This document shows positions 26,130 through 51,225 of a stretch of DNA of 64,000 nucleotides, one piece after another (the first letter of the stretch is position 1; each line of letters opens with the position of its first letter). Under the pieces are notes generated by a model. It saw only the letters and a list, made by a program, of their open reading frames with translations. It had not been told where the DNA came from and made no database searches. Origin of the DNA: Minisyncoccota bacterium. GTDB lineage: Bacteria; Patescibacteriota; Minisyncoccia; Phycocordibacterales; VMEP01. The DNA lies in the NCBI GenBank assembly GCA_041661305.1, contig JBAZUR010000001.1, positions 387,684 to 451,683 on the forward strand, written 5' to 3'. Made by a program: the position numbers and the translations under genes.

Positions 26130-26145
26130 AATTTGTAAAATAGAA

Positions 26146-27108: not shown

Positions 27109-27111
27109 AAA

Positions 27112-27933
27112 ATGACAAAGGTAACAATTATTAAACCAAAAAAAGTTCTCAGCCTGAGAGATTTTAAAGAACTTTGGGATTACAAAGAGCTCTTGTATTT
27201 TTTTGTATGGCGTGATTTCAAGGTACGCTATAAACAAACCATTATTGGGGTTGGTTGGGCAATATTCCAACCATTTATGACAATGGTCGTTTTCAGTATT
27301 TTTTTTGGAACTCTCTTAAAAATACCTTCTGATAACGTGCCGTATCCAATCTTTGTTTATACAGGACTTCTTTTTTGGCAATTTTTCTCTAGCGCTCTTT
27401 CAGAAACAAGTAGTGTGTTAATTAGTAATCAGGCAATTATAACTAAAGTGTATTTTCCACGACTAATTCTCCCATTATCATCTGTTGCGACAAAACTTGT
27501 TGATTTCGCAATAGCTTCGGTAATTCTTGCAGGAATGATGGTTTATTATGGATATGCCCCACATCTTACGGGATTATTTATCCTCCCCCTCTTACTTGCA
27601 ATCACCTTTATGGCATCTGTTGGTGGTGGATTATTTTTAGCAGCAATAAATGTTAAATATCGCGATGTTCGATATATTCTCCCATTCTTTATTCAGATAT
27701 TAATGTTCCTTACTCCGGTAATTTACCCAGCGAGTATAGCAGGAAAATATTCTTGGATTCTAGCCCTTAACCCAATGATGGGTGTGATTCAATCAGCCCG
27801 AGCAAGTCTCTTGGGAACTGCTCCAATCAACTGGACACTTATTGCGATATCTTTTACCGCCTGCGCAGTACTACTCGCAATTGGTACTATTTATTTCAAA
27901 AAAGTAGAGCGCTATTTTGCAGACATAGCATAA
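27112..27933 (+). CDS. wzm: ABC-2 type polysaccharide export permease (Wzm/TagG-like)
   Basis: Six TM segments, the ABC-2 family pattern (FKVRYKQTIIGVGWAIFQP), and a position directly upstream of the ATPase. Confidence 0.8.
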   Translation: MTKVTIIKPKKVLSLRDFKELWDYKELLYFFVWRDFKVRYKQTIIGVGWAIFQPFMTMVVFSIFFGTLLKIPSDNVPYPIFVYTGLLFWQFFSSALSETSSVLISNQAIITKVYFPRLILPLSSVATKLVDFAIASVILAGMMVYYGYAPHLTGLFILPLLLAITFMASVGGGLFLAAINVKYRDVRYILPFFIQILMFLTPVIYPASIAGKYSWILALNPMMGVIQSARASLLGTAPINWTLIAISFTACAVLLAIGTIYFKKVERYFADIA

Positions 27934-27937
27934 AAAT

Positions 27938-29200: not shown

Positions 29201-29204
29201 TAAT

Positions 29205-29867
29205 ATGAAGATAATAAAAAATTATTATTATTTAATCAGAAATAAAATCCTAAAACATTTTATAGGAGCATATAACATTTGGGATATATATGGTGGGCAT
29301 TTTAAGGTAACTTATCGAGGCATACCGACACTTAAATGTCCCTTTGATTATGTAATGTACCAAATGATAATATCTGAACTTAAGCCAGACCTTGTTATTG
29401 AAATTGGAACCAATTTTGGTGGAACATCTCTATATATTGCCGATTTAATGGAGGCAATAGGGCATGGTGAAGTCCACACAATAGACATAGAAGATCGTAC
29501 AGAAAAAACATTAAAACAACATCCACGCATAAAACTATTTACAAATGGCTGGAAAAATTACGATCTGGAAAATACCAGTAAATTCTTAAAAATAATAGTT
29601 ATCGACGATGCTTCACATATATACGAAGACACACTAGAGACAATAAAAACTTTCTCTAAAATAATACCAGTGGGATCATACTTAATAATTGAGGATGGAA
29701 TTGTAACTAGACTCAAAAGAGCTAAGTTGCTTAATGGCGGACCACTACGAGCAATTGAAGATTTTATGAAAACAAATGACTGTTTCGTAGTTGATAATAA
29801 ATATTGCAATATGTTTGGAGAAGATACAACTTTTAATACCAAGGGGTATCTTAAAAGAATAAAATAA
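29205..29867 (+). CDS. CmcI/cephalosporin-hydroxylase-family SAM-dependent O-methyltransferase (rhamnosyl O-methyltransferase-like)
   Basis: WDIYGG...KPDLVIEIGTNFGGTSLYIADL...IVIDDASH is typical of PF04989. Confidence 0.7.
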   Translation: MKIIKNYYYLIRNKILKHFIGAYNIWDIYGGHFKVTYRGIPTLKCPFDYVMYQMIISELKPDLVIEIGTNFGGTSLYIADLMEAIGHGEVHTIDIEDRTEKTLKQHPRIKLFTNGWKNYDLENTSKFLKIIVIDDASHIYEDTLETIKTFSKIIPVGSYLIIEDGIVTRLKRAKLLNGGPLRAIEDFMKTNDCFVVDNKYCNMFGEDTTFNTKGYLKRIK

Positions 29868-30776
29868 ATGACTAAAGTATTTATAGGAATGCCTGTATAC
29901 AACGGGGAACGCTTTCTAAAAGAAGCACTGGATTCTTTACGTGAGCAAACATTCACTGATTGGGAAATTTTTATTTCTGATGATGCTTCAAAAGACAACA
30001 CTGCAACAATATGTAATGATTTTGCAAAAAAAGATTCCCGGATTTCATACTTTAAGCAAAAAGAAAATATTGGGATGTTTGCAAACTACAAATTTGTCAT
30101 GGATAAAGCAAATGCGGAATACTTTATGTGGGCGGCGCAAGACGATTTGTGGGAAAAGGAATATCTGGAAACATGCATAGAACATTTTAACAAGAACAAA
30201 AACCTTGGACTTGTTACAACCTGTACGATAGCAATCGACTCCTTTGGTCGTACATTAATGAAGGCTCACTGGATGAAAAACCTCTCTGGTAATCCAGGGC
30301 ATTTACAGGTCTCTAAATATGTTTTTCAACCAGAAATACTTGGTAAGTGTAATTTAATGTACTCACTCTTTAAAACAGAAGCTGTAAAAAGTACCTGGAA
30401 TGCATACCCACAAAGAAATGTTTGGGGGCAAGACTACATGTTTAGCTTAGCTGCGATTAGCAGGTTTGGTGTTATTGTTGATGAAAAAACGTTATTTAAA
30501 AAAAGGCTTGGTGGAGCATCTAGTCCACAGTTATCTATAAAAAAAAGCGATGAAGTAGTAACCGCAATGAACTTTAAGAACCCTAAAAATCACATGTTCC
30601 CTTTTGGTCGATTTCAATCATATCTTAACGGGCACATAGAGGCCGTAGATAAAACCACGTACAAACTATTAGTTGCCACCATTCTTTTTATCCGCCTACC
30701 ACGAGCACTTATCATTCATATTAAAGAAAGGAGTATCAAAAACTATATTCAGAGATTAATAAAAAAATTATTATGA
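29868..30776 (+). CDS. Glycosyltransferase family 2
   Basis: GMPVYNGERFLKEALDSLREQTFTDWEIFISDDASKDNT (GT2 DXD region). Confidence 0.8.
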   Translation: MTKVFIGMPVYNGERFLKEALDSLREQTFTDWEIFISDDASKDNTATICNDFAKKDSRISYFKQKENIGMFANYKFVMDKANAEYFMWAAQDDLWEKEYLETCIEHFNKNKNLGLVTTCTIAIDSFGRTLMKAHWMKNLSGNPGHLQVSKYVFQPEILGKCNLMYSLFKTEAVKSTWNAYPQRNVWGQDYMFSLAAISRFGVIVDEKTLFKKRLGGASSPQLSIKKSDEVVTAMNFKNPKNHMFPFGRFQSYLNGHIEAVDKTTYKLLVATILFIRLPRALIIHIKERSIKNYIQRLIKKLL

Positions 30777-31663
30777 AAAAAATAGTAGTAAAACTTAATG
30801 GTGGTCTATGCAACCAAATATTTCAATATGCTTTTGCGCGCGCATTATCGGACAGAAAAAAAGTTGGGTTTTCTTTAGACATAACACCTTTCTCTACTTA
30901 TTACACAGCTGATCCATATGGATTATCAAAGTTTAATATTAAAGAAAATATTGCAAAAAATTCAGGTCTGTTTGGTTTTATTTGGCTAAGAAAACATAAT
31001 TCATTTTTCAATTTTATATACCACCGTCTAAGACTAAAAAATATAATAAAGTTTTGGTATTACCAAGAAAAATCTTTCAGATACGACCCTGAAACATTCA
31101 CGTCTAAAGCTTCTTATTATGAAGGTTTTTGGCAAACAGAAAAATATTTTAAAAATATTGAAGGCGACATAAGGAAAGAGATAACATTAAGGGCGCCACT
31201 TTCGCCACACAGTAAAGATATATTAAAAAAGATTGAAGAAACTACCGCTATATCAATTCATGTTCGTAGATATGCGTCAGAACACATTACACCTTGGCAT
31301 GGTTTCTGCTCAGAAGAATATTATCTGAGTGCTATCAAAAAAATACTAACATCTTCACACAATCCACATTTTTTTATTTTCTCTGACAATTATAACTGGG
31401 TCTTGGAAAACTTTGTACCAAAACTAAAATCATTAAACATTCAATTCACCTTAGTAAACAACGATAACGATAAAAACGCCGAGGATTTAATACTAATGTC
31501 AAAATGCAAACATCATATTATCGCTAACAGTAGCTTTAGTTGGTGGGGTGCATGGCTTAACCCAAATAAAGAAAAAATTGTTATTGCCCCAAAAAAATGG
31601 TTCGCCCATGCCCCAAAAAACGATACGAGCGACCTAATCCCCGAAGAGTGGATAAGGATGTAA
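30773..31663 (+). CDS. Alpha-1,2-fucosyltransferase (GT11)
   Basis: N-terminal LNGGLCNQIFQYAFARAL (GT11 motif I), and ISIHVRRY..., in a GDP-fucose context. Confidence 0.8.
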   Translation: MKKIVVKLNGGLCNQIFQYAFARALSDRKKVGFSLDITPFSTYYTADPYGLSKFNIKENIAKNSGLFGFIWLRKHNSFFNFIYHRLRLKNIIKFWYYQEKSFRYDPETFTSKASYYEGFWQTEKYFKNIEGDIRKEITLRAPLSPHSKDILKKIEETTAISIHVRRYASEHITPWHGFCSEEYYLSAIKKILTSSHNPHFFIFSDNYNWVLENFVPKLKSLNIQFTLVNNDNDKNAEDLILMSKCKHHIIANSSFSWWGAWLNPNKEKIVIAPKKWFAHAPKNDTSDLIPEEWIRM

Positions 31664-31667
31664 TTCC

Positions 31668-32678
31668 CTATCCTAAAATATATTTGTCTTTATGTTTTTT
31701 ATAATACTCAAACATTTTGGTTAGTCCATCCTCAAGGCTTGTTTTGGGCTTCCATCCGGTATCTTTGTAAAATTTAGACATATCATTTTCAAAGTTACCT
31801 GTTTCTTCATTTTTATAGTTTTCTGGCCAAGAAACATGTTCTATATTCCCAGATCCCACAATTCGCACAATAAGCTCAACCATTTCTTTAAGCTCAACCG
31901 ATTTCCCAACTCCACAGTTATACAACTCACCATTGGTGGTTTGGTTTATGCCAGCCTGAAGTAGCGCCTCCACCAAATCACTTATGTGTATGTAGTCGCG
32001 TTTTTGGGTACCATCACCAAAAATATTTATAGTCTTCCCCTCCATTGCAAGTCGCATGAACCACCCCGGTACAGAATATTTACTATGTTTTATTTGTTGA
32101 CGTTCACCATATGGATTAGTTATACGAAGAACAACTGTATTTAATCCATAGTTTTTATTATACAGAAAAGAATATTTTTCATTTGTAAGTTTATGTGCAC
32201 CATATAGGTTGAGAGGATTTGCTGGATGATTTTCCGTTACGGGATTTTCTGTAATTTTTCCTAACGCCAAACGAGAACTTGGAAATACTATCTTTGCTTC
32301 TTTGTTTAATTTTCGACACGACTCTAATATGGTCAAGTAACCTTTGCAATTTATCTCAAGATCATCAAAAGGGATATTTCCGCTATCAATAGGACTTACT
32401 TGGGCGGCTAAATTAAAAATAAAATCTTTACCAAGAACGAGTTTCTCTATTAGTTCTTGATCTCTAATATCCCCCATTACCAACAACACTTTATCTTCGA
32501 TTCCATTTATATTAAAAATATTTCCACCGTAAAGAGGTGCCAAATTATCTAATATCGTAACTTTTGCTCCAAGGAAAACAAGCTGATGTGCCAAGTTGCT
32601 CCCAATAAACCCTAAACCACCAGTTATTAAGACCTCCTTCCCTTTATATTTTTTTGTGATATTTTCTTCATCGTTCAT
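31668..32678 (-). CDS. NAD-dependent epimerase/dehydratase (extended SDR)
   Basis: VLITGGLGFIGSNLAHQL, and the YxxxK region. Confidence 0.75.
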   Translation of the reverse strand: MNDEENITKKYKGKEVLITGGLGFIGSNLAHQLVFLGAKVTILDNLAPLYGGNIFNINGIEDKVLLVMGDIRDQELIEKLVLGKDFIFNLAAQVSPIDSGNIPFDDLEINCKGYLTILESCRKLNKEAKIVFPSSRLALGKITENPVTENHPANPLNLYGAHKLTNEKYSFLYNKNYGLNTVVLRITNPYGERQQIKHSKYSVPGWFMRLAMEGKTINIFGDGTQKRDYIHISDLVEALLQAGINQTTNGELYNCGVGKSVELKEMVELIVRIVGSGNIEHVSWPENYKNEETGNFENDMSKFYKDTGWKPKTSLEDGLTKMFEYYKKHKDKYILG

Positions 32679-33199
32679 AATAATTTATATTGCTCATCTC
32701 TCTCAGAAACAATTGGATTTGAAATTGGCCATGCTATATCTACTTTTGGATCATTCCATAATATTCCTCTTTCGTGCTCAGAAGAATATTCAGAAGTACA
32801 TTTATAAATAACTTCGGCACTATCACCCAAGACGACAAACCCATGAGCAAAACCTTCTGGTATATAAAGTTCGTGATGATTTTCTTCAGACAAAATAGCA
32901 CCCACCCAAGAGTACTTTGTTTTAGAGCCATCTCTTATGTCAACAGCAACATCAAATATTTCTCCTTTAACACAACGTACTAATTTACCCTGTGCCATTG
33001 GGCTTTCTTGGTAATGTAGCCCCCTAAGAATACCTTTTGTTGAAAAAGACTGATTTTCTTGTACAAAAGATGGAATACCGTTTTCTTTAAAAATACTTTC
33101 TTTGTGTGTTTCCATAAAAAAACCCCTGTCGTCTTTTAAAACCACTGGTTCTATTAATATAACCTCAGGAATCTCTAGTTTTTTAAACACAAAAGGCAT
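32675..33199 (-). CDS. dTDP-4-dehydrorhamnose 3,5-epimerase-like cupin (RmlC family)
   Basis: PEVILIEPVVLKDDRGFFMETH...RGLHYQ are conserved RmlC motifs. Confidence 0.75.
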   Translation of the reverse strand: MPFVFKKLEIPEVILIEPVVLKDDRGFFMETHKESIFKENGIPSFVQENQSFSTKGILRGLHYQESPMAQGKLVRCVKGEIFDVAVDIRDGSKTKYSWVGAILSEENHHELYIPEGFAHGFVVLGDSAEVIYKCTSEYSSEHERGILWNDPKVDIAWPISNPIVSERDEQYKLL

Positions 33200-37151: not shown

Positions 37152-37724
37152 TTACTCACCAAAAAGATTTTGCTCAACCCCCTCACAAATAGAGTGCCCC
37201 AACAACATGTGACATTCTTGTATACGAGGAGTGTCGCTTGAAGGAATTTTTATTATGTAATCACATAATAAATCCATTTTTGAAGGCTTCTCCCCCGTAA
37301 AACCGACTGTTATCATCCCGATATTTTTGGCCTCCTCTAGTGCTAAAATTACATTTTTTGAACCACCAGAAGTTGAGAGTCCAACTAAAACATCCCCTTT
37401 TTTGCCAAGGGCTTTTATTAACCTTGAATAGACAACATCGTAGGAATAGTCGTTAGCAACAGCGGTAAGATAAGAAGTATTAACATGAAGTGCCTCAGAA
37501 GAGAGTGGTTCTCTGTCAAAATAATACCGTCCGGAAAGTTCTGCGGCTAGGTGCTGAGCATCAGCAGCACTTCCTCCGTTACCACACCATAAGGTTTTAT
37601 TACCAGCTTTATAGCTTTCTGTTATAGTTTTGGTTATATCTTCCGCAATACTAATAATCCTAGCATCATCTAATAGTCTCTTCTTTGTATCAATAGATGT
37701 TTGAATTCTGTCTTTGATAAACAT
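37152..37724 (-). CDS. gmhA: D-sedoheptulose-7-phosphate isomerase (SIS domain)
   Basis: TLWCGNGGSAADAQHLAAEL...GLSTSGGSKN. Confidence 0.8.
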   Translation of the reverse strand: MFIKDRIQTSIDTKKRLLDDARIISIAEDITKTITESYKAGNKTLWCGNGGSAADAQHLAAELSGRYYFDREPLSSEALHVNTSYLTAVANDYSYDVVYSRLIKALGKKGDVLVGLSTSGGSKNVILALEEAKNIGMITVGFTGEKPSKMDLLCDYIIKIPSSDTPRIQECHMLLGHSICEGVEQNLFGE

Positions 37725-39527: not shown

Positions 39528-40064
39528 TTACTTCTCGTTATAATAATCCCCGTATTCCACCAAGATAGTACTTTTACCGTCCTCTCTTTCTAGGGCCTTT
39601 TTGTACGCAGGAAAAATATCTTCTGGTTCTTCAAGACGAATTATCTCAACATTTGGACACATCAGACGAAACGCTTCGGTATAATCACCTATGTGCTGAA
39701 ACTGTGGGTGCATAGGGCGGACAGAACCAATGCCGGTACGTATAATAACTTTTGGCTGATAGCCTCCGTTTGACATAATAGACAATTTGTCTAAATGATT
39801 AACCAGCTGGTTTGTTCCTACAAGCAAAAAATTCCACCTTGGGAAAATACTTACTGGGACGTGCCCAGCTAACGCAAGCCCGATAGACATTCCCATCTGC
39901 ATTTCCTCAGCAACTGGAAGTTCTAAAAGTTTTTCTTTTGGAACATTTTTAAGTGTTGTGGTCATTGCAGTTCCTGGACACGCCACTGCCTGCCCAATAA
40001 AAAAAGACCTTTCATCTTGTGCAATCATTTCCATCGCGCGACTAAGTTCTTCAAAATATTTCAT
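39528..40064 (-). CDS. TPP-dependent enzyme beta-like subunit (transketolase pyrimidine-binding domain only; lacks the C-terminal domain)
   Basis: 178 aa. SFFIGQAVACPGT...EEMQMGMSIGLALAG is the Transket_pyr pattern. Confidence 0.6.
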   Translation of the reverse strand: MKYFEELSRAMEMIAQDERSFFIGQAVACPGTAMTTTLKNVPKEKLLELPVAEEMQMGMSIGLALAGHVPVSIFPRWNFLLVGTNQLVNHLDKLSIMSNGGYQPKVIIRTGIGSVRPMHPQFQHIGDYTEAFRLMCPNVEIIRLEEPEDIFPAYKKALEREDGKSTILVEYGDYYNEK

Positions 40065-40067
40065 AAG

Positions 40068-40706
40068 TTAAAATTGAACACGCTCCCCTGCCCCAGCGTG
40101 AGGATATTTAGTTTGGTATTTATAATAAACCACATTAGGATTTTTAGAATCTTCGTATGTAAGTTTATCTTGCTTCCATGTGCTAAGTGTCTCTGTACAC
40201 ACAGATTTTCCATTGTCTTCAATAATAAAACGTATTGGCAAATCATGGTTTGTCGCGTATTTAATGCACTCATGTGCTATGCCTGTCTCTGATGTCATGT
40301 CTCCCATAAAACAATGAACTTTATTTTTTCCTCCACTTCTTTTAATCCCCATTGCAACCCCAACTGCAATAGGAAGAATCCCACCAACGATTGCAGAAGA
40401 AACTATTCTCTGTTCTGGGAAACATAGTGATATTGATCTATTTGCGAGAATTTCTTCGCGAAGCCTATCTTCCGGCACCCCCTTTAAAAGACACTGATAA
40501 TGACTTCGCCAAGAACACATCACCCAATCTTCCTCTTTAACATCACGGAATACTTCTATTATTTCCTTTTCATTTCCATAATAAAGATGTACAGGGGAAG
40601 GAATTTTTGCAGAATTAAATAAATCCGCAATTTCTGTTTCAAAATTAATTAAATCTTCTGGGGTTAATTCTTTCCCTTTCTGAAAAGGTGTCTGGTTTGT
40701 ATCCAT
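40068..40706 (-). CDS. TPP-dependent enzyme alpha-like subunit (E1 alpha / transketolase N-terminal TPP-binding section)
   Basis: HCFMGDMTSETGIAHECIKYATNHDLPIRFIIEDN (GDG-x-N TPP motif). Confidence 0.6.
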   Translation of the reverse strand: MDTNQTPFQKGKELTPEDLINFETEIADLFNSAKIPSPVHLYYGNEKEIIEVFRDVKEEDWVMCSWRSHYQCLLKGVPEDRLREEILANRSISLCFPEQRIVSSAIVGGILPIAVGVAMGIKRSGGKNKVHCFMGDMTSETGIAHECIKYATNHDLPIRFIIEDNGKSVCTETLSTWKQDKLTYEDSKNPNVVYYKYQTKYPHAGAGERVQF

Positions 40707-40770: not shown

Positions 40771-40812
40771 ATAAAAAAAACCGCACATGACGAGATGCAA
40801 CATGTGCGGCTT
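40771..40812 (-). terminator. Strong intrinsic terminator for the radical-SAM gene (ccgcacatg/catgtgcgg stem followed by T8 on the minus strand)
   Basis: Sequence aaaaaaaaccgcacatgacgagatgcaacatgtgcgg is read directly. Confidence 0.75.
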
Positions 40813-40828: not shown

Positions 40829-42370
40829 CTACCCCCCTGGAGTGAGGTCCCCAAGAATCTTACGCTTCAAGTGAAAACCAAGTAGTCCTTCGATGGTTTT
40901 GCGCTGTTCCAAACCAAACCTTTTTTCCACCAAAGAGAGGAAAGCAGGGTTGGAATGATAGATGTCCCATGCTTCATCGCGGAACCTTAAAACTTCCGCG
41001 GATGTGCAATGTTTTGTGGGCATCGGTTGGCAATGATAAGAAAGGAATCCAAAGCCGGCATAAGAATCCGGCAAAACAATCCCCTTCTTCTTTGCCTCGA
41101 CATAGAGAGAACTCCCCGGCAATGCCATGCACGGATACATATTCGCTTCTTCCGTGTTAAGCTCCATCGCAAGCTCGAGTGTCTCCTGCATCGTTCCGAC
41201 TGAATCTTCCGGCAGGCCAAAGATATAGTTCGCGATAACGTTAATATCATGATCGCGGACCGTCTTCACAACTTCACGGATATTCACATCCTTGAAAGTC
41301 CCTTTCGAAACTTCCTTGCGGACATTTTGGTTCCCCGACTCAACCCCGAGAGCAAGCCAATCAATGCCTGCCCTTTTGAAAAGGTCGAGATACCGCGACT
41401 GGACGCTGTCGACGCGAGCATATGCCCACATGCGAAGTCCCAGCTCTCTTTCAACAACAAAGTTGAGAAGCGGTTCGAAATATTTCCTTTGCAGGAAAAA
41501 CATCTCATCGGAAATCCTAACCGTCCTGACGCCCATCTTGGAAAGCTTTTCGAGCTCGCCTGCGATGAAACCCGGCGACCAAAAACGCATCCCGGGTGAA
41601 TCCGCCGCGGAAATATCGTCGCCGTTATTGTTACGGTTTACGATGTTGATCATGCAGAAATTACAGCGAAACTGACAGCCCAGTGAGGTATAGATAGCGG
41701 CGAACGGACTCCGGTTGTTTTGATTGAAGCCAGCGTGCCAAATGTGCGCACGATACATATCCAACGGCTTTTCACGATAAGGCAGAAGATCCCACGCGTA
41801 GCCTGGCAAGTCTTCGTCCATTCTTTCTTGCGGAACGACCTGTTCGGGTGGATTCAGGATGGAGGCTCCTCCTGTCTTGAATCCAATTCCCCTCACAGTA
41901 AAAAACGATGATTTTTCCAGGTCGGTCCGAAGAAGATTGTGAAGTGCGTAAACGCCTTCGTTCAAGAGAACGATGTCGACACAATCAAGTGCGAGAACTT
42001 CGCGTGGCAAAGCACTGACATGAGACCCAACAAAGCATGTTGGGTATTCCGGGAACTCGTGTTTCAAGGCTTCGCCCAAAAGCTCCGCTCCAGCCATACT
42101 GGCTGTACCAGAGTTGGGATTCTGCCCGTACATCACGAAACAAACCAGACGTGGTTTCATGTCGTCAATGCGTTTAACCGCTTCATCGACAGAGAGGTGC
42201 TCGGCGCCACAATCAAGAATCGCGACACCAAAACCTTTCGCCCGACAACTTTGGGCCAACAAAAGCGCCCAGGTTGGCGGTTCAATTGCTGTGTATTTTT
42301 CACTCAACCCCTGATAAGCCTGAAAGGACGAATCGGGATTAACAAACAAAACGTCTAATTTTTTATCCAC
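40829..42370 (-). CDS. B12-binding (class B) radical SAM enzyme
   Basis: N-terminal B12-binding domain (VLFVNPD..., GFGVAILD). The radical SAM motif is YTSLGCQFRCNFC (CxxxCxxC). Length is 513 aa. Local GC is about 50% versus about 35% in flanking DNA. Confidence 0.8.
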   Translation of the reverse strand: MDKKLDVLFVNPDSSFQAYQGLSEKYTAIEPPTWALLLAQSCRAKGFGVAILDCGAEHLSVDEAVKRIDDMKPRLVCFVMYGQNPNSGTASMAGAELLGEALKHEFPEYPTCFVGSHVSALPREVLALDCVDIVLLNEGVYALHNLLRTDLEKSSFFTVRGIGFKTGGASILNPPEQVVPQERMDEDLPGYAWDLLPYREKPLDMYRAHIWHAGFNQNNRSPFAAIYTSLGCQFRCNFCMINIVNRNNNGDDISAADSPGMRFWSPGFIAGELEKLSKMGVRTVRISDEMFFLQRKYFEPLLNFVVERELGLRMWAYARVDSVQSRYLDLFKRAGIDWLALGVESGNQNVRKEVSKGTFKDVNIREVVKTVRDHDINVIANYIFGLPEDSVGTMQETLELAMELNTEEANMYPCMALPGSSLYVEAKKKGIVLPDSYAGFGFLSYHCQPMPTKHCTSAEVLRFRDEAWDIYHSNPAFLSLVEKRFGLEQRKTIEGLLGFHLKRKILGDLTPGG

Positions 42371-42503: not shown

Positions 42504-43532
42504 TTATTTAGTGGCGGTTATTTCTTTTGCAACCTCTTTACGCCAATGATTGATGAGGTGTTCCATGCTTTCTTTAAAGGTGTAGTTTGGCTCCCATCCT
42601 GTCACTTCACAAAATTTACTAGTATCAGGTATTTGAAGTGTTACATCTGATGGACGAAGTAGTGCTGGGTCTACCCTAGTTGGAATTGGTTTTTTTGCAA
42701 GAGATATTAGTGTATCTAAAAAATCACGTACGGACATTGTTGTGGTGCCTCCAATGTTGTAAGCCTCCCCTGGTTCACAGTACATAAGCGCGTCCCAATA
42801 TGCCCTCATGGCATCTCTTACGTCAATAATCGTTCTTATTGAATCAAGATTTCCGTGTACCAACTCCTTCTGTAAGCCCATTTCTATTCTAACTACTTGT
42901 CTCGCAAAAGAAGTTGCAAAAAGATCAGTTCTACGAGGGTTCAAATAAGTAAACATCCTCGTCCTTATTATCGGCATTTTATATGACTTAAAATAGCTAT
43001 AACCAAGCATATCTTGTGCCACCTTTGAAACAGCATAAGGGCTCGTTGGGCACATTGGGGTATTTTCGTTTATTGGAACATATTTTGGATCTACAACGCC
43101 ATAAACCTCCGAACTACTACAAAGTTGGATAAGCGGGTTAATTTTTGCCGCGCGAATAGCCTCAAACAGGTTTGCTGTACCCATAATATTATTATTCAAA
43201 ACAGAGAGTGGTGTTTGAAAAGACGCACGCACATTAGCATGGGCTGCCAAATGAAAAATTGCATCTGGTTTGCTTTTTTCTAGTGCCGATAAAACAGAAC
43301 TAAAATCCATAAGATCACATTCATGTAAGGTAACCTTATCTCTAATCTCGTGAAGATTGTCTGTAACCGTAGTGCTGTGCCAGCGACCCATCCCATGAAC
43401 TTCAATTTTAGGATGATTTTTAACTATATATTCGGCCAAATAACTACCCCCTGACCCCGAAATACCCGTAATCAAAACTCTTTTAATTTTTTTTAATCTT
43501 GCCTCAGATTTTTTATTTTTTTGTTGTTTCAT
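42504..43532 (-). CDS. NAD-dependent sugar nucleotide epimerase/dehydratase (extended SDR; Gmd/Rmd-like)
   Basis: VLITGISGSGGSYLAEYI, and 342 aa length. Confidence 0.7.
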   Translation of the reverse strand: MKQQKNKKSEARLKKIKRVLITGISGSGGSYLAEYIVKNHPKIEVHGMGRWHSTTVTDNLHEIRDKVTLHECDLMDFSSVLSALEKSKPDAIFHLAAHANVRASFQTPLSVLNNNIMGTANLFEAIRAAKINPLIQLCSSSEVYGVVDPKYVPINENTPMCPTSPYAVSKVAQDMLGYSYFKSYKMPIIRTRMFTYLNPRRTDLFATSFARQVVRIEMGLQKELVHGNLDSIRTIIDVRDAMRAYWDALMYCEPGEAYNIGGTTTMSVRDFLDTLISLAKKPIPTRVDPALLRPSDVTLQIPDTSKFCEVTGWEPNYTFKESMEHLINHWRKEVAKEITATK

Positions 43533-43725: not shown

Positions 43726-44913
43726 ATGAAAAAACAGGCAAAAACTAGTAACTGGCCACTAATGTATAACAACATTTCAAAAGACGACGTTAATAAGGTT
43801 ATTTCGTTTCTATCACAAAAAAATATCCCCATCCTAACGCAATCAAAAAAAGTCAGGGAATTTGAAGAAAGTTGGTCAAAATGGCTTGGAGTTAAATATA
43901 GCGTTTTTGTAAACTCTGGAAGTTCAGCTAACCAAATTACAATGCTTGTCTTAAAAGAGCTATACGGAACAGGAGAGATAATTGTACCGCCACTAACGTG
44001 GGTATCTGACATTGCGTCAGTTCTACAAAATGGTTTTACTCCTGTGTTTTGTGATATCAACCTAACGACACTAGCGATAGATATTGAGGAAATAAAGAAA
44101 AAAATAACCCCAAAAACTCGCGCCATCTTTTTAACTCATATTCTTGGGTATAATGGACTTACCCAAGAACTATTAGATTTATGCAAAAAAAAGAAAATAA
44201 TACTAATTGAAGACACCTGTGAATCACACGGGGCAACCTTTAAAAATAAAAAGTGTGGATCCTTTGGTTTAGTATCTAATTTTTCTTTTTACTACGCACA
44301 TCACCTATCTTCAGTTGAAGGTGGTATGGTTTGCACAAATGACGAAAAAATATATCAATACGCAAGGATGTTTAGGTCACATGGAATGGTTCGTGAAAGC
44401 ACAAATGAAAAAATAAAAAAAGATTACGCAAAAAAATACAAAGATTTAAATACAGATTTTATATTCTCATCTCCTGCCTACAATATGAGAAATGGCGAAA
44501 TTAACGCCGTTATGGCGTTAAACCAATTGAAAAGATTGGACAAAAACAACAAAACAAGAAAAGACAACTTAAAAATTTTCCTAAAAAACCTCGACTCCAA
44601 AAAATACTTCACAAACTTTAACCAAACCGGTAATTCTAATTACGCCTTTACCCTACTTTTAAATAATCCTGACTTTAAAAAGAGAGATCTAATAGAAAAA
44701 ACATTAAAAGAAAACGGTGTAGAATTTAGAAGAGGAATGTCTGGCGGTGGAAACCAGCTAATGCAACCTTACTTAAGAAAATTGTTTGGTAATGAATATT
44801 TAAATTACCCAAACACAAACCACGTTCACCATTTTGGGTGGTATATTGGAAACTACCCAGACCTAAATAAAGATCTAATTCCTAAGCTGTGTAAAATGTT
44901 AAACTCTATATGA
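43726..44913 (+). CDS. DegT/DnrJ/EryC1/StrS-family PLP-dependent sugar aminotransferase/3-dehydratase (RfbH/DdhC-like)
   Basis: ...FEESWSKWLGVKYSVFVNSGSSANQITML... is the family pattern, and a PLP Lys region is present. Confidence 0.65.
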   Translation: MKKQAKTSNWPLMYNNISKDDVNKVISFLSQKNIPILTQSKKVREFEESWSKWLGVKYSVFVNSGSSANQITMLVLKELYGTGEIIVPPLTWVSDIASVLQNGFTPVFCDINLTTLAIDIEEIKKKITPKTRAIFLTHILGYNGLTQELLDLCKKKKIILIEDTCESHGATFKNKKCGSFGLVSNFSFYYAHHLSSVEGGMVCTNDEKIYQYARMFRSHGMVRESTNEKIKKDYAKKYKDLNTDFIFSSPAYNMRNGEINAVMALNQLKRLDKNNKTRKDNLKIFLKNLDSKKYFTNFNQTGNSNYAFTLLLNNPDFKKRDLIEKTLKENGVEFRRGMSGGGNQLMQPYLRKLFGNEYLNYPNTNHVHHFGWYIGNYPDLNKDLIPKLCKMLNSI

Positions 44914-45866
44914 TAATAGTAAAATCACCGCTTAGAATATCTTTTTTTGGTGGATCTACAGATTATGAATCTTTTTACAAAGAACATGGTTCTTTTATTA
45001 TCGGCACCACGATTGATAAATATATATGGCTCTCCGCCAGATATAGACCTAAAATTCTACCAAAAGAACACTCGATAGCTTACTCTAAACTTGAGGTGGT
45101 TTCGTCTTTTGAAGAGGTGCAAAATCCCCTTATTAGAGAAGTTCTAAAATACCACGATATACGCAATCATATTGATTTCACCTCCTCGGCAGACGTTCCC
45201 TCTAGGACGGGACTAGGTGGTTCATCCTCTTTTTGTGCTGGGATGATACACCTTATGAAAAATCTAAAGGGGGAGTTTTCAGAAAAAAAAGATATCGCAA
45301 AAACAGCTATTCATATCGAGAGAAACATCTTAAAAGAAAGTGGTGGTATTCAAGATCAAATATGGGCAGCATATGGAGGATTTAACACCATAAAAATAGA
45401 TAGGAACGGGGACTTTGAAGTTACTCCTATTCCTGTTTCAGATAAATTTAAACGAGAACTTGAGGAGTCTATTGTCCTAATTTACACAAACGACCAAAGA
45501 AACCAAAACGAAATAGCTCAGTCTCATGAAAATAAAGACAAAAAAAAGATACTGGACTTATCTCTAAAAGCTTATGATTATTTTATAAAAGAAGACATAA
45601 GGGGTATTGGGGAATTGTTACTAGAGTCGTGGAATGAAAAACGTAAAATATCATCACTTATCTCTACTGAAAAAATAGATAAAATGGCGGAAAAAGTTAT
45701 GAGTATGGGCGCCTACGGAATAAAGCTTCTCGGTAGTGGTGGCTGTGGTTTCCTGATGGTGATATGCAATAGTGATGTTAAAAAGAAAATAGTAGAAGAA
45801 TTTAAAGAAAATATCCTCGAATTTAAATTTGAAGACAAGGGTACTTCGATTGTGTATCCAAACTAA
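44910..45866 (+). CDS. GHMP-family sugar kinase (D-glycero-D-manno-heptose 7-phosphate kinase HddA-like)
   Basis: SPLRISFFGGSTDY...GTGLGGSSSFCAGMI (GHMP motif). Confidence 0.65.
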   Translation: MIIVKSPLRISFFGGSTDYESFYKEHGSFIIGTTIDKYIWLSARYRPKILPKEHSIAYSKLEVVSSFEEVQNPLIREVLKYHDIRNHIDFTSSADVPSRTGLGGSSSFCAGMIHLMKNLKGEFSEKKDIAKTAIHIERNILKESGGIQDQIWAAYGGFNTIKIDRNGDFEVTPIPVSDKFKRELEESIVLIYTNDQRNQNEIAQSHENKDKKKILDLSLKAYDYFIKEDIRGIGELLLESWNEKRKISSLISTEKIDKMAEKVMSMGAYGIKLLGSGGCGFLMVICNSDVKKKIVEEFKENILEFKFEDKGTSIVYPN

Positions 45867-45908: not shown

Positions 45909-46847
45909 ATGAAAAAAATACTTGTAACTGGTGGGGCGGGATATATAGGAGCAGTTTTAGTTCCAGATTTACTTAAGGCTGGACACGAGGTCACCGTAAT
46001 CGATAATTTTCTTTTTAAACAGTCGCCACTTCTTGATGTCTGTAATTACAAAACCTTAAAAATTATCCGAGGAGACGCAAGAAACGAGTCATTGATTAAG
46101 GAGCATATTGCCGACAAGGATTATATAATACCGCTCGCCTGTTTAGTTGGTGCCCCCCTATGCGACCAGGACCCACTAAGCGCTACAAGTATAAACCGCG
46201 ACGCAATTCTAATGCTCCTTAAACTTCGCACCCCAGAACAAAAAATAATTTTCCCGAACACAAATAGTGGTTATGGGCGAATGGAGGAAGGGGTTGCGTA
46301 CTGCGACGAAAACAGTCCACTTGAACCAGTCTCACTTTACGGAAGATTAAAAGTTGAAACAGAAAAGGCCCTTCTTGAAGCGGGCAATGCTATTACATTT
46401 AGACTTGCAACAGTTTGTGGGGTTAGTCCAAGAATGCGCATGGACTTACTTGTAAATGATTTCGTATATCGAGCCATAACAGACCGCGCTGTTGTTTTGT
46501 TTGAGCCACACTTTAAAAGAAACTACATACACGTAAGAGATGTCTCACGTGCCTTCCTCCACGCAATTGAGAACTTTGAGAGCATGAAGAATCAAACATA
46601 TAATGTTGGTCTATCAGATGCGAACCTAAGCAAATCTGAATTGTGTGAAAAAATCAAAGAACAATTACCTAAATTTGTATTTATTGAGTCCCCTATTGGT
46701 GAAGATCCAGACAAAAGAAATTACGTAATTAGTAATGAAAAAATAGAAAAGACTGGATTCATGCCACAAGTATCGATAGAAAATGCTATAACTGAACTAA
46801 TAAAAGGTTACCAAGTGGTTAGAAAAAACCAGTTTTCTAACGTTTAA
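45909..46847 (+). CDS. NAD-dependent epimerase/dehydratase (SDR)
   Basis: ILVTGGAGYIGAVLVPDLL. Confidence 0.75.
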   Translation: MKKILVTGGAGYIGAVLVPDLLKAGHEVTVIDNFLFKQSPLLDVCNYKTLKIIRGDARNESLIKEHIADKDYIIPLACLVGAPLCDQDPLSATSINRDAILMLLKLRTPEQKIIFPNTNSGYGRMEEGVAYCDENSPLEPVSLYGRLKVETEKALLEAGNAITFRLATVCGVSPRMRMDLLVNDFVYRAITDRAVVLFEPHFKRNYIHVRDVSRAFLHAIENFESMKNQTYNVGLSDANLSKSELCEKIKEQLPKFVFIESPIGEDPDKRNYVISNEKIEKTGFMPQVSIENAITELIKGYQVVRKNQFSNV

Positions 46848-46857: not shown

Positions 46858-47286
46858 ATGATAATAGGAATAGTATCTGGCTATTTTAACCCATTACACT
46901 ATGGGCATGTTGAATATATAAACGGAGCAAAAAAACACTCAGATAAACTTATTTGTATAATAAACAGCGACAAACAAGTAGCGCTAAAAGGTTCTTTTCC
47001 ATTCATGGACGAAGATCATCGAGCTAAAATAATCAGCAACTTAAAATCTGTTGATGAAATATTCATATCAATAGATAAAGACAAAACACAATGTGAATCA
47101 CTAAAATACCTTAGAAATAAGTATCCAAAAGAAAATTTAATATTTTTCAATAGTGGTGACAGAAAAGAAGGCAACTTAGAAACTAGCGAGGCCACAGTTT
47201 GTAAAAACTTAAATATCAAATTTCAGATTTTAGATTTACCAAAAATATATTCTTCGAGTGATCTTTTAAAAAAAAGTGGCATCTAA
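46858..47286 (+). CDS. HxGH nucleotidyltransferase (cytidylyl/adenylyltransferase, RfaE domain-II-like)
   Basis: GIVSGYFNPLHYGHVEYINGAKK...LICIINSD. Confidence 0.7.
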   Translation: MIIGIVSGYFNPLHYGHVEYINGAKKHSDKLICIINSDKQVALKGSFPFMDEDHRAKIISNLKSVDEIFISIDKDKTQCESLKYLRNKYPKENLIFFNSGDRKEGNLETSEATVCKNLNIKFQILDLPKIYSSSDLLKKSGI

Positions 47287-48706: not shown

Positions 48707-49534
48707 ATGAAAAACTTTATAAAAAATATAACCCCACCACTCTTCTACGCACTTCTAAAAAAGCATTTAGTAAAACAGAGGGTATTTTCTCCTGAATGGG
48801 TTACTCTCACCTATAAGCCACTCAATGGCATAAAAATATTTTTTGATCCTAGCGGACCTTGGCAAAAAACGATCATCAACAACACGTACGACACATTTCT
48901 TTTTGACAGACTAACCTCGGAAGACTTGCGGGGGAAAGTAATTTTTGATATCGGTGCTCATATAGGATTCCACTCCCTATACTTCGCAAGACTTGTAGGA
49001 AGTACGGGCAAGGTATATTCTTTTGAGCCTAATCCAAAAAATGTAGAGAGGTTTGAAATTATATGTGCTAAAAATGATGACATAAAAAACATAATCAATA
49101 TATTAGGCGTTGCTGTTTCTAATGTTTTAGGGACAGAAGAATTCAGTATGAGTGACGACATTGAAAGCGGAAGGAGTTCTGGAGGATTTATTGATACAGC
49201 TGACACTATCTGGGAAAGGGGTGCGTTTAAACAAAGAGGATTTAAAGAAATAAAAGTAAGAACAGTTCCTATTGACCTTTTCAAGGGAGAGCTGGGGATA
49301 CAAGAAGCCCCTGATGTAATGAAAATAGATGTTGAGGGGGCTGAATCTCTTGTCTTAGCTGGCGCAAAAAACACCATTTTGTCTAAAAAACCACTAATTC
49401 TTATGGAAATTCACTCAATGCTCAATATGTTTAATGTGGTATCTTTTCTCACCTCTATTTCCTATGAGCTAAAAATTATAAAAGAAGAAACGGACGGACG
49501 ATGTTTTATAGAAGCTCGCTATAAAAACAAATGA
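48707..49534 (+). CDS. FkbM-family methyltransferase
   Basis: VIFDIGAHIGFHSLYFARLVGSTGKVYSFEPNPKN. Confidence 0.7.
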   Translation: MKNFIKNITPPLFYALLKKHLVKQRVFSPEWVTLTYKPLNGIKIFFDPSGPWQKTIINNTYDTFLFDRLTSEDLRGKVIFDIGAHIGFHSLYFARLVGSTGKVYSFEPNPKNVERFEIICAKNDDIKNIINILGVAVSNVLGTEEFSMSDDIESGRSSGGFIDTADTIWERGAFKQRGFKEIKVRTVPIDLFKGELGIQEAPDVMKIDVEGAESLVLAGAKNTILSKKPLILMEIHSMLNMFNVVSFLTSISYELKIIKEETDGRCFIEARYKNK

Positions 49535-51225
49535 AAACATTAAAAAATATTCTCTTAGGCGGGTTCTTTGTTTTTATTGTTTTTGTTTTTTTATACCCAA
49601 ACCCATTTGGTAACAACCCTGACATAATTGCCGACGAAAGCTATTTCCTTACAAGCTCCCTTTCTGCAATTGAAAAAATAACTCTTCCTGGATGGGAGTT
49701 CTCGCAATCTGGTAATTACTATGGCGGAGTACAAACGTATATAGATTATTTTGTTTTAATACCAGTGCTCGGGGTCATCATGGCCTCTCATGATTTCTCT
49801 GTTATCTCAACCAAGCTTTGGGTTGCGTTGAACACTGGGGAACTCCTGCACATTCTTCGAATTGTAAATGGGTTACTTATGGTAGGTGCAATCATAGGAT
49901 GTTATTTTTATTTTTCAAAGAGAAACATCCCAAAAAAATTATCTCTTACTCTAATTCTTTTTCTATTTTTATTACTAAGCAATGTCCTCATCATACAATT
50001 TTTTCATACAGCAAAAATATGGGGTGTTTATATAATCATAACCTCAATAATAAGCGCCTTGTTCATTGCAAATGAATATTATTTAACAAACTTCAAAGAA
50101 CCATTTATTAAAAAAGAGAAATGGATACTACTTTTGGTTTGGAGTAGTGTGTTTCTTTTCTTCCAGAATTATGTAGGAGCAATATCAATTTTTTTGATAA
50201 CAATATACGCGCTCCTGTTAGAGCACTTAAAAATATCGGATTTACTTAATTATTTAAAAAAATACTGGTACCTAATAATTCTGTTTGCATTAACACAAAT
50301 ATCATTCATACATAGAGCAATCTTTTTGAATTGGCTAACTGGGTCATTTGCCCAAATAATAGTCACTAACCAAGATGGTCAAACTGACTGGTTTTTGCGT
50401 TTATACAATCCGCTACTTTTTACAATAAAAAGTCACCCGCTTGTGGTGTTACTCTTTGTAGTGAGTGCCATTTGTTTATTTTTTTCTATATCAAAAAATA
50501 AACAAATTCTGCTAGATAAAAGAAAAGTGGTTTATTTATCCATGGCGTTAGCGCATCCATTTTTAGTCTATTTAATTTTCCATGTCGCAATAGGATTCAG
50601 TTTTACTATGAGGTATGCCATATTTTTGACGCTTGCATTAGCTTTTTCTTCAACAATTTTGTTAAGTGAAGCCAGGCTAATTTTAGTAAAAATATCACTG
50701 GGTTTAAGTGCGCTTTTGTTTTTCATAATAGGTATACACTCCATCCCTCTTTATTGGCATGAATCTTCGGAGATGACATTATTAAAAACAATAGAGAAAA
50801 AATATAATTCCCCAACAAATGTTTTTATTGAAAAACCAGACGCCCTACACCTCACCCTTCCAATAAACGCTGACTCTCTTTCTTTGTTGAACAAAAAAAG
50901 ACAGAGTATGGGTCGTTTTCAATTCTTGTCACAAAACCAAGATTTACTACGAGATAACGTTTCTTTCAAACCCTTAACGCTTATTACATATAGCGAAGAA
51001 GAGCTAAGCGACTCATTAGCACATTTCCAAAAAAAAGATGTCTCTGTTTGGACCATAACAACAAATTGCAATAATTTATGCACATACCAAGAGTTAACGA
51101 TGCAAACTTGTTTTGAGGTTCGTACAAACGCCTGTGGTACTGCCCCACAAGAAATAAATCTTTTAGCACAGTTTCTTTCATCAAAACAACTTGGACATTC
51201 TTATGTTGTCCGCAAAATACAATAA
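49531..51225 (+). CDS. Large polytopic membrane protein (564 aa, at least 10 TM); candidate glycan polymerase / membrane glycosyltransferase
   Basis: Hydropathy only; no motif was recognised. Confidence 0.4.
   Translation: MKTLKNILLGGFFVFIVFVFLYPNPFGNNPDIIADESYFLTSSLSAIEKITLPGWEFSQSGNYYGGVQTYIDYFVLIPVLGVIMASHDFSVISTKLWVALNTGELLHILRIVNGLLMVGAIIGCYFYFSKRNIPKKLSLTLILFLFLLLSNVLIIQFFHTAKIWGVYIIITSIISALFIANEYYLTNFKEPFIKKEKWILLLVWSSVFLFFQNYVGAISIFLITIYALLLEHLKISDLLNYLKKYWYLIILFALTQISFIHRAIFLNWLTGSFAQIIVTNQDGQTDWFLRLYNPLLFTIKSHPLVVLLFVVSAICLFFSISKNKQILLDKRKVVYLSMALAHPFLVYLIFHVAIGFSFTMRYAIFLTLALAFSSTILLSEARLILVKISLGLSALLFFIIGIHSIPLYWHESSEMTLLKTIEKKYNSPTNVFIEKPDALHLTLPINADSLSLLNKKRQSMGRFQFLSQNQDLLRDNVSFKPLTLITYSEEELSDSLAHFQKKDVSVWTITTNCNNLCTYQELTMQTCFEVRTNACGTAPQEINLLAQFLSSKQLGHSYVVRKIQ

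Follow-up and report, generated by a model that had tools for sequence, protein, structure and literature searches.

Enzymes that depend on thiamine diphosphate (ThDP) are known to attach carbon branches to keto-sugars. In actinomycetes, two-gene E1-type enzymes termed αKADH2 (AviB1/AviB2, Pau11/Pau12, the aldgamycin and kosinostatin enzymes, and KbDH-α/β) work in keto-sugar pathways without E2 or E3 partners, and transfer a pyruvate-derived C2 unit to the C3 or C4 ketone of a sugar to give a tertiary alcohol (PMC12247030, PMC4425429, PMC4753412). The C2 branches of aldgamycin, kosinostatin, paulomycin, avilamycin, trioxacarcin and kibdelomycin arise at C3 or C4 of keto-sugars in this way (PMC12247030, PMC4425429, PMC4753412), and KbDH-α/β couples pyruvate with ketone analogues in vitro (PMC12247030). 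A different enzyme, YerE, adds a pyruvate-derived acetyl group to C4 of cytidine diphosphate (CDP)-3,6-dideoxy-4-keto-glucose, and its relatives build erwiniose, caryophyllose and gastriose; the sugars of the YerE/ErwE group occur in surface polysaccharides (PMC9306805). YerE-like enzymes have accordingly been placed in lipopolysaccharide synthesis and αKADH2 enzymes in secondary metabolism by PMC12247030, in whose text the word “heptose” does not appear. Activated heptoses are made for the capsule of Campylobacter jejuni by a guanosine diphosphate (GDP)-heptose pathway that comprises HddA, HddC, GmhA, Cj1427, a DmhA-type 4,6-dehydratase and the C3-dehydratase of serotype HS:5; the word “thiamine” is absent from PMC10680097, and thus no ThDP enzyme is described there for this pathway. 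A full-text literature search that paired heptose with ThDP terms likewise returned nothing relevant. Here we analyse two short adjacent genes at positions 39,528 to 40,706 of a 64,000-nucleotide stretch of Minisyncoccota bacterium DNA (assembly GCA_041661305.1, contig JBAZUR010000001.1, positions 387,684 to 451,683 of the forward strand), which we call the window. Their products are E1α- and E1β-like, very probably work together as an active ThDP enzyme in a nucleotide-heptose pathway and, as we propose with moderate confidence by analogy with the enzymes above, would add an acyl branch to C4 of a nucleoside diphosphate (NDP)-4-keto-(3-deoxy)-heptose. Full-size E1-like enzymes that branch sugars were already known; a minimal, stand-alone, GDP-heptose-coupled E1-type ThDP pair is new.

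The two open reading frames (ORFs) are intact, lie on the minus strand and are separated by only 3 nt (junction TAA-CTT-ATG). This is the arrangement described in a first-pass annotation made from the sequence of the window, which had reported a 212-residue ThDP-binding protein next to a 178-residue pyrimidine-binding protein and had pointed out the motif GDMTSETG...IIEDN, which is indeed present in the α product. The α-like ORF carries GDMTSETGIAHECIKYATNHDLPIRFIIEDNG. Its match to Pfam E1_dh covers only profile positions 7–170 of 300, and the match of β to Pfam Transket_pyr covers positions 15–167 of 174, that is, the whole domain. No Pfam match to Transketolase_C was found in the β protein, which stops where the PYR (pyrimidine-binding) domain ends, and the third C-terminal domain typical of transketolase and 1-deoxy-xylulose-5-phosphate synthase (DXS) is absent from the pair. 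The NCBIfam models for the pyruvate dehydrogenase (PDH) E1 subunits matched α at 1.2e-22 and β at 1.3e-12, both far under the equivalog cut-offs and reaching only the N-terminal half of each model. When the pair was compared with profiles for the three candidate families, as had been suggested in the first-pass annotation, the E1 models came out on top with 51–80 bits, above transketolase NF004559 (17 bits), dxs TIGR00204 (16 bits) and Pfam DXP_synthase_N (18 bits); a weak TPP_enzyme_C match (24 bits) was also seen over the shared ThDP motif. The nearest solved sequences are the E1α subunits of branched-chain 2-ketoacid dehydrogenase and PDH for α, and PDH E1β for β. Solved E1α chains have 365–400 residues and solved E1β chains 324–342, compared with 212 and 178 here, which bears out the earlier remark that both proteins are far shorter than PDH E1 subunits and that β lacks the C-terminal domain. 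The start of β is called differently by different resources: ENA and Logan give 168 residues from the internal Met11, and NCBI gives 178. We favour the longer form because 178 residues is the fixed length in the family, whose N-terminus is conserved, with M1, Y3 and E6 invariant.

The short length is a family trait and not a sign of decay. An NCBI protein of a Candidatus Paceibacterota metagenome-assembled genome has the same sequence as the α protein of the window. Among the best 120 clusters per subunit from a collection of 5.8 billion proteins, α homologues have 199–228 residues (72–100% identity) and β homologues nearly always have 178 (76–100% identity). When 1.84 billion cluster representatives (50% identity) were searched exhaustively with a profile, 176 matched at E<=1e-30, and the full-length representatives among them have 195–220 residues and reach the C-terminus of the profile. 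In GTDB species representatives, the short α was found at 57–91% identity in Saccharibacteria, many Verrucomicrobiota and an acidobacterium, as well as in single-cell genomes of Pelagibacteraceae and SAR116 and in Beta- and Gammaproteobacteria. Plasmid records gave only ordinary full-length E1α matches at 25–32% identity. Both genes are under strong purifying selection: against the closest relative (dS ~0.9), the ratio of nonsynonymous to synonymous substitution rates (dN/dS) is 0.059 for α and 0.019 for β, and in more distant pairs, in which synonymous sites are saturated, the proteins are still 62–86% identical. These results speak directly to the concern, raised in the first-pass annotation itself, that the genes might be fragments of a pseudogenised transketolase, since intact ORFs, fixed lengths, dN/dS values of 0.02–0.06 and a conserved two-gene module are not what such fragments would give. 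Only two points, the short length of the proteins and the label “pyruvate dehydrogenase E1 component alpha subunit” that databases give them, would favour non-functional PDH or transketolase remnants, or a conventional E1 that serves a small dehydrogenase complex, and we give these explanations next to no weight. Remnants are refuted by the conservation, to which the invariant cofactor residues and the existence of fused versions can be added, and a conventional E1 is contradicted by a β subunit without an E2-binding domain, by the lack of an E2 or E3 gene nearby and by the constant placement of the pair in glycan loci.

The residues that are retained are those expected of the catalytic part of an E1. 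The α family profile aligns to residues 49–208 of the 365-residue chain of human PDH E1α, and α keeps the histidine of the HLxxGxE motif (H40), the YRxH motif (R67 and H69) and the ThDP/Mg motif. The α family shows no variation at H40, R67, H69, E163, D164, N165 and H203 and has only D or E at position 136, and its ThDP motif takes the form G-[DE]-M-T-[SA]-E-[TS]-G-x20-E-D-N-G. The β sequence PVAEE is the aligned counterpart of P(I/L)xE in solved E1β chains; the cofactor-activating glutamate, E53, is invariant, as are H119 and H124, both of which lie in a loop. AlphaFold2 models of the two proteins (pLDDT, the predicted local distance difference test, 81 for α and 76 for β) gave heterotetrameric E1α chains as all top PDB folds for α (TMq 0.64–0.71) and E1β PYR domains as top folds for β (TMq ~0.70). 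The pair thus shares the PP (ThDP/Mg-binding) and PYR folds, the ThDP/Mg motif, the activating β glutamate and the HLxxGxE and YRxH motifs with canonical PDH and branched-chain E1 enzymes, but ~40–45% of their mass is missing and a family-specific tail, KYPHAGAGxRVQF, is added. This short invariant tail stands where the C-terminal region of α (about 110–130 residues) would be. In canonical E1α, the C-terminal region carries a loop with a histidine for reductive acylation of lipoyl-E2, and the C-terminal domain of E1β docks E2. The tail and the invariant β loop 112–125 are predicted with low confidence in the models, and we interpret them as parts of the active site that would gain their order only once the complex has formed.

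Neither in the window nor in five other contexts did the annotated genes within ~10 kb of the pair include 2-oxoacid_dh, Biotin_lipoyl or E3 domains. The missing E2-binding domain and the lack of E2, E3 or lipoyl neighbours indicate a stand-alone ThDP enzyme and not a part of a dehydrogenase complex. With the parts for work in such a complex lost, the pair would act as a decarboxylating carboligase. An α2β2 assembly is probable, in which each active site would lie between the PP domain of α and the PYR domain of β. Joint action of the two products as a single enzyme is supported by homologues in which PP and PYR are fused in one chain, namely those of the cyanophages P-TIM68 and S-SM2 (381–402 residues, 36–40% identity), the metagenomic protein P0280 and phrog_34187, a family with no assigned function. 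Other homologues showed further architectures: P0277 has an intein (Intein_splicing/Hint) inserted just ahead of the ThDP-binding motif of a short α, P0281 has a LAGLIDADG domain upstream of the α part, P0331 is a fusion of an APH-family kinase to α, and P0280 is the α–β fusion already mentioned. Minimal split ThDP enzymes are known from another branch of the superfamily. Sulfopyruvate and phosphonopyruvate decarboxylases (RhiE/F) and the α-imino-acid decarboxylase AzcB/AzcC likewise consist of two chains of ~170–200 residues with PP and PYR alone, and AzcB/C and RhiE/F, like DXS structures, are among the fold matches of the β model. They belong to the decarboxylase branch, however, with Foldseek identities of 12–14% to the β model and lower TM-scores, and they are plain decarboxylases of phosphonate, coenzyme M and natural-product pathways, not of sugar-nucleotide ones.

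To see which genes accompany the pair, we counted partners in 33 non-redundant cellular loci and 43 viral loci from IMG/VR, all flanked on both sides by 6 kb or more (Table 1). The β gene follows directly downstream of α, on the same strand, in every cellular locus (33/33), and the viral loci all contain it (43/43). Unbiased ORF clustering of 58 loci yielded a core of six genes, which are “DegT”/ColD-like, GHMP kinase, α, β, a 312-residue short-chain dehydrogenase/reductase (SDR) and a B12-binding radical S-adenosylmethionine (SAM) enzyme; no C4-reductase is in this core. In all contexts examined the pair lies within glycan loci. Its placement in a glycan locus in the window, as proposed at the outset, is confirmed by the GT2, GT1 and GT11 glycosyltransferases, Wzm/Wzt, Gmd/Fcl-like genes and methyltransferases around it. 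The earlier notion of short two-gene pairs serving sugar pathways likewise holds, with the two-gene arrangement shared across 33/33 cellular loci; the characterised branching pairs are full-size (Pau11 has 325 and Pau12 345 residues, PMC4425429, against 212 + 178 here), and it is the minimal size that is new. AviB1/B2, AlmDI/DII and KbDH are likened to the pair here by analogy and gene context.

Table 1. Features of the cassette in the window, with the frequency of each partner in related cellular and viral loci (PLP, pyridoxal phosphate; PMP, pyridoxamine phosphate)
Feature	Position	Strand	Size and matches	Cellular loci	Viral loci
GmhA, sedoheptulose-7-phosphate isomerase	37152..37724	-	190 aa; NCBIfam gmhA 3e-56, 189.7 bits vs cut-off 209	6/33	
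E1β-like PYR subunit, without C-terminal E2-binding domain	39528..40064	-	178 aa; Pfam Transket_pyr 2.4e-11		
E1α-like PP (ThDP/Mg-binding) subunit	40068..40706	-	212 aa; Pfam E1_dh 1.4e-13		
Terminator-like hairpin	40773..40809	-	CCGCACATG-11 nt-CATGTGCGG + T8; 9-bp stem, just past the radical SAM stop codon		
B12-binding radical SAM enzyme	40829..42370	-	513 aa; Pfam B12-binding + Radical_SAM	24/33	37/43
GMD-family SDR (SDR342), GDP-heptose 4,6-dehydratase-like or 4-keto reductase	42504..43532	-	342 aa	6/33 (GMD-like)	
ColD-type (“DegT”-like) PLP/PMP-dependent NDP-4-keto-sugar 3-dehydratase (probable)	43726..44913	+	395 aa; best PDB match ColD 2gms 4.9e-54	28/33	26/43
HddA-like GHMP sugar-phosphate kinase	44910..45866	+	318 aa; NCBIfam HddA 1.1e-38, full length	30/33	23/43
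Cj1427-like SDR (SDR312)	45909..46847	+	PDB 6vo6/6vo8 3.6e-110, 54.5% identity over 310 aa	27/33	40/43
RfaE domain II-like cytidylyl/adenylyl-transferase-family nucleotidyltransferase	46858..47286	+	142 aa; NCBIfam rfaE_dom_II 4.5e-15, cyt_tran_rel 1.7e-15	27/33 (HddC-like or RfaE-II-like)	

Genes predicted to generate NDP-keto-sugars adjoin the pair in the window, these being the Cj1427 orthologue, a 4,6-dehydratase-like SDR and the ColD-type 3-dehydratase. The SDR312 matches 6vo6, which we identified as Cj1427 because the primer Cj1427cF918 (PMC3546167) encodes RAFKMMKV, a sequence present near the C-terminus of the 6vo6 chain; a full-text search on the PDB code 6vo6 gave nothing relevant. 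Cj1427 is a GDP-heptose C4-dehydrogenase (PMC10680097). The best PDB match of SDR342 is 7us5, the C. jejuni GDP-heptose 4,6-dehydratase, and a GDP-4-keto-6-deoxymannose reductase comes nearly as close. The best PDB match of the “DegT” gene, ColD, is a GDP-4-keto-6-deoxymannose 3-dehydratase (PDB 2gms), and its best NCBIfam match is RfbH. The first histidine of its SFYYAHH motif aligns with the ColD residue that is altered in the H188N (3b8x) and H188K (2r0t) structures; the motif is kept across a 41-member cluster, with histidine where sugar aminotransferases have the PLP lysine. From these sequence features the product is probably a 3-dehydratase. In public annotation, this gene is a DegT/DnrJ/EryC1 aminotransferase, and the same mis-annotation would hold for the whole 41-locus cluster. 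We had considered that it might encode an aminotransferase that aminates the acetyl branch, and rejected this on account of the change of the catalytic lysine to histidine and of ColD being the best structural relative. The HddA-like kinase has heptose 7-phosphate kinase as its best PDB match (4n3o, 8.5e-28). In other lineages an HddC-like NTP_transferase replaces the RfaE-II-like nucleotidyltransferase, and the SAR11 version forms a fusion protein with a GmhB-type phosphatase. In the window, 2.3 kb separate GmhA from the pair; GmhA also adjoins the pair in several SAR11 and SAR116 loci and in cyanophage clusters. A route resembling the methylerythritol phosphate pathway, in which DXS-like, IspD-like and IspE-like proteins would lead to a CDP-polyol, was rejected since the best scores are to HddA, HddC/RfaE-II and GmhB.

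The identities of these partners bear on whether the pair could be a plain 2-oxoacid decarboxylase, which would supply an aldehyde or another small building block for a decoration other than a carbohydrate, or convert a 3-deoxy-D-manno-octulosonate (Kdo)- or nonulosonate-type acid into a 2-deoxy-aldose for the GHMP kinase. Minimal split ThDP decarboxylases do exist, as shown by AzcB/C and the phosphonopyruvate decarboxylase RhiE/F among the fold matches, a free sugar as product would account for the anomeric kinase, and NeuB is found near the cassette in one CPR (candidate phyla radiation) lineage. However, neither NeuB nor Kdo-type genes are conserved partners, the kinase, transferase and phosphatase are specifically of heptose type, and no role would be left for the conserved Cj1427- and ColD-type enzymes, so we consider this explanation improbable.

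The partner set instead points to a GDP-heptose. The partners in the window are orthologous or close to the enzymes of the C. jejuni capsular pathway and would give the same GDP-4-keto- and GDP-3-deoxy-4-keto-heptose (PMC10680097); in vitro, Cj1427 together with a ColD-type C3-dehydratase yields GDP-D-glycero-3-deoxy-4-keto-D-threo-heptose (PMC10680097). With HddA-like, Cj1427-like, ColD-type and HddC/RfaE-II-like proteins as partners, the likely acceptor is GDP-4-keto-(3-deoxy)-heptose. In C. jejuni, epimerisation of the 4-keto intermediates precedes their reduction by C4-reductases, whereas here the ThDP pair and usually the B12-binding radical SAM enzyme stand in the core, and because that core has no C4-reductase the ketone needs another consumer. 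In the pathway that we propose, the Cj1427 orthologue would oxidise C4, or the 4,6-dehydratase-like SDR would yield the 6-deoxy-4-keto form, and the ColD-type enzyme would then take off the 3-hydroxyl to give an NDP-3-deoxy-4-keto-heptose. The pair would decarboxylate a 2-oxoacid, most likely pyruvate, and add the ThDP-bound acyl anion to the C4 carbonyl. We propose attack at C4 because it bears the sole carbonyl of the 3-deoxygenated sugar. Such an addition would give a 4-C-acetyl tertiary alcohol, that is, a yersiniose-like branch on a heptose, which the glycosyltransferases of the locus would then use.

This scheme follows the same logic as the yersiniose, erwiniose, caryophyllose and gastriose pathways, in which a 4-keto-sugar is acted on by a 3-dehydratase, ThDP-dependent acyl addition takes place at C4 and the side chain is optionally reduced (PMC9306805). 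The enzymes differ: those of YerE type consist of one acetolactate-synthase-like chain, belong to the decarboxylase superfamily (YerE itself is a flavoprotein) and act on CDP-3,6-dideoxy-4-keto-glucose, while the pair is split, of E1 type and predicted to act on a heptose. We did not find in it the single-chain YerE-like architecture of TPP_enzyme_N, M and C domains; it consists of two chains with E1_dh and Transket_pyr. In chain organisation, the pair is closer to the actinomycete αKADH2 enzymes, which belong to secondary-metabolite clusters and act on deoxyhexoses, sometimes after glycosyl transfer, in contrast to the surface-glycan loci and GDP-heptose route seen here. The first-pass annotation had proposed transfer of a C2 unit onto a keto-sugar, giving a branched deoxysugar. 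The keto-sugar-making neighbours and the literature precedents agree with the transfer itself, which we infer on these grounds; the generic deoxysugar gives way to a heptose made by an HddA/HddC-type route. At one stage we also considered erwiniose as the product, by radical SAM methylation of heptose C7 plus a C2 branch, and dropped this idea since a YerE-type enzyme, a hexose and a C5 keto-acid donor explain erwiniose (PMC9306805).

Searches of PDB and NCBIfam for the function of the radical SAM gene next to the pair gave weak matches only (in NCBIfam, HpnJ, PhpK and BchE-type models, far under cut-off). The gene is a compositional outlier, with a GC content of 0.494 and a third-codon-position GC content (GC3) of 0.537, compared with 0.29–0.41 and 0.21–0.36 in its neighbours, and it is 74% identical to the copy in the closest related locus, L012, compared with 78–97% for the other cassette genes. 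In the sister CPR loci L007 and L015, a NUDIX gene occupies its slot. The composition, the low identity and the replacement by NUDIX together suggest that it was probably inserted or replaced by recent lateral transfer. Between it and E1α lie the terminator-like hairpin and an AT-rich stretch with TATAAT. The hairpin was read directly from the sequence, since a consensus terminator scan missed it owing to its 11-nt loop, which is too long for the scan. This arrangement suggests that E1α and E1β form a bicistronic unit of their own that is transcribed apart from the radical SAM gene. Where the enzyme is present, it probably C-methylates the product or an intermediate. The C-methylated sugar that the first-pass annotation had read from this neighbour therefore fares only partly well: the gene is a frequent partner of the pair, but it is not universal, looks laterally acquired and is separated by the hairpin, and C-methylation is a guess. 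Several small ORFs of 87–139 residues overlap the E1 and radical SAM genes, at 40017-40292 (+), 40987-41250 (-), 41249-41675 (+) and 41939-42358 (+). They are antisense or in another frame of the same strand and are very likely spurious; antisense ORFs over the pair also formed a false “family” (cluster 8) in the clustering of related loci.

The same gene is relevant to a further explanation, in which the ThDP pair, together with the B12-binding radical SAM enzyme, would cleave or rearrange carbon–carbon bonds of a 4-keto-heptose and so remodel its skeleton instead of branching it. Acetoin:DCPIP oxidoreductase, of the same αKADH2 superfamily, cleaves an α-hydroxyketone (PMC12247030). The best family matches of the radical SAM enzyme include HpnJ and BchE-type proteins, which are not methylases, and on viral contigs it is tightly tied to the pair (37/43). 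On chemical grounds, transketolase-type cleavage beside C4 appears unfavourable, since C5 of a pyranose bears the ring oxygen and has no free hydroxyl. We know of no precedent on nucleotide sugars; moreover, the radical SAM gene is absent from about a quarter of the cellular loci, and in the window the hairpin stands between it and the pair. Taken with these points, skeletal remodelling strikes us as very improbable.

The cassette was seen in CPR bacteria, Verrucomicrobiota, SAR11, SAR116 and on IMG/VR viral contigs. IMG/VR contains 128 relatives with 55–68% identity, on contigs (L067-L146) of up to 174 kb, most of which have a module of Cj1427-like, radical SAM, α and β genes. The 8-kb flanks of two of these contigs hold mostly glycan genes, with PHROG glycosyltransferase matches and one ribonucleotide reductase. 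A viral origin of the contigs is plausible, mainly from their IMG/VR classification. Among phages, the cultured Prochlorococcus phage P-TIM68 (L064) and Synechococcus phage S-SM2 (L065) encode the fused PP–PYR protein, annotated as “transketolase central region-containing protein”, and the fused homologue adjoins genes for GmhA, RfaE-I-like and RfaE-II-like proteins, epimerases and a zinc-dependent alcohol dehydrogenase. In the 735-kb uncultured jumbo phage LR756501 (L066) the two halves are split, with β 1.1 kb upstream of α.

A number of observations weigh against C4 branching as the reaction of the pair, or complicate it. The reaction is assigned to this short family from gene context and by analogy, and the pair is only ~20% identical (17–23%) to any solved E1. 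Its ThDP motif departs from the canonical GDG-x(25-30)-N(N), with G-[DE]-M for GDG and EDN for ENN. The ColD-type gene is missing from ~30% of the loci, and the viral mini-module, with its Cj1427-like, radical SAM, α and β genes, does without it, from which it follows that 3-deoxygenation is not obligatory. SAR11 loci hold a second, longer E1-like pair (279 + 305 residues) immediately upstream of the short one, and two ThDP steps may therefore occur there. We located this second pair at L047:8270-10002 (+) and in seven other SAR11 loci; its 305-residue β matches positions 40–323 of 327 of the PDH E1β model, C-terminal part included. In the window, no GmhB/HAD phosphatase was detectable across the 64 kb by tblastn with a SAR11 HAD domain as the query, and the 7-phosphatase step is either encoded outside the window or bypassed. 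The window also holds both the Cj1427-like C4-dehydrogenase and the 4,6-dehydratase-like SDR, a redundancy without an explanation. To our knowledge, no described glycan of these uncultured organisms has a C-branched heptose. Finally, the distant cyanophage homologues have genes for GmhA, RfaE-I and RfaE-II as neighbours, but none of Cj1427 or ColD type, a context that an earlier role in heptose synthesis would fit too, and one homologue is fused to an APH-type kinase.

These last two points also speak for a transketolase- or DXS-like enzyme that would act before activation and condense an aldose phosphate with a C2 unit, for which pyruvate, hydroxypyruvate or a ketose would be the donor. Its product would be sedoheptulose-7-phosphate or an unusual (deoxy or longer) ketose phosphate, which GmhA, the kinase, a phosphatase and the nucleotidyltransferase would turn into an NDP-sugar; by analogy, a transaldolase step opens the synthesis of the lincosamide octose. 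Transketolase and DXS share the PP and PYR folds, DXS is among the matches of the β model, the sequences show weak DXP_synthase_N matches, and GmhA is immediately upstream of the pair in SAR11 loci. Yet the pair scores 51 bits with E1 against 18 and 17 bits with the DXS and transketolase profiles, its top fold matches are all E1, and most of the host lineages are expected to own an ordinary transketolase. GmhA could not, by chemical reasoning, isomerise a 1-deoxy-ketose derived from pyruvate, and the tightest partners act on an NDP-heptose and give a ketone that has no other consumer in the core. We therefore judge synthesis of the sugar backbone to be unlikely and retain acyl branching at C4 of the NDP-4-keto-heptose as our preferred assignment.

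Beyond the cassette, the window encodes further glycan functions. The region 25005-33199 holds a canonical Gmd (513 bits to GDP_Man_Dehyd) together with an Fcl-like SDR. It further encodes two proteins of GT11 type (the fucosyltransferase family), the ABC exporter Wzm/Wzt, which includes a Wzt C-terminal domain, an RmlC-like 3,5-epimerase accompanied by a further SDR, and a methyltransferase of CmcI type, suggesting that several nucleotide-sugar routes feed one ABC-exported glycan in this CPR bacterium. The ORF at 49531-51225 (+), which encodes 564 residues at the end of the plus-strand operon of the cassette, had no Pfam or NCBIfam match.

The wider picture can be drawn only tentatively, and taken as a whole it is possible but doubtful: the pair would be the smallest known E1-type ThDP carboligase (~390 residues per α–β protomer) and, with a Cj1427-type dehydrogenase and a B12-binding radical SAM enzyme, would make a C-branched and possibly C-methylated higher sugar derived from a heptose on a nucleotide carrier, and the cassette would move horizontally between CPR bacteria, Verrucomicrobiota and SAR11 and serve large phages as an auxiliary set for remodelling host surface glycans. 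If the branching model is right, SAR11 and Verrucomicrobiota, which are among the most abundant bacteria of aquatic habitats, and ultra-small CPR bacteria would display an undescribed 4-C-acyl-branched heptose for which their phages would also carry genes, with a bearing on phage–host recognition and surface diversity in ocean and groundwater. E1-type ThDP enzymes that make chiral tertiary alcohols are sought as biocatalysts (PMC12247030), and an E1 format with little more than half the mass and without complex-forming parts would be an attractive scaffold and would show how little of the E1 fold suffices for catalysis. Published C. jejuni enzymes already give access to the predicted acceptor. 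Thousands of metagenomic labels of “pyruvate dehydrogenase E1 alpha/beta” or “DegT aminotransferase” would then be wrong, and the proteins that carry them would probably belong to a nucleotide-sugar pathway.

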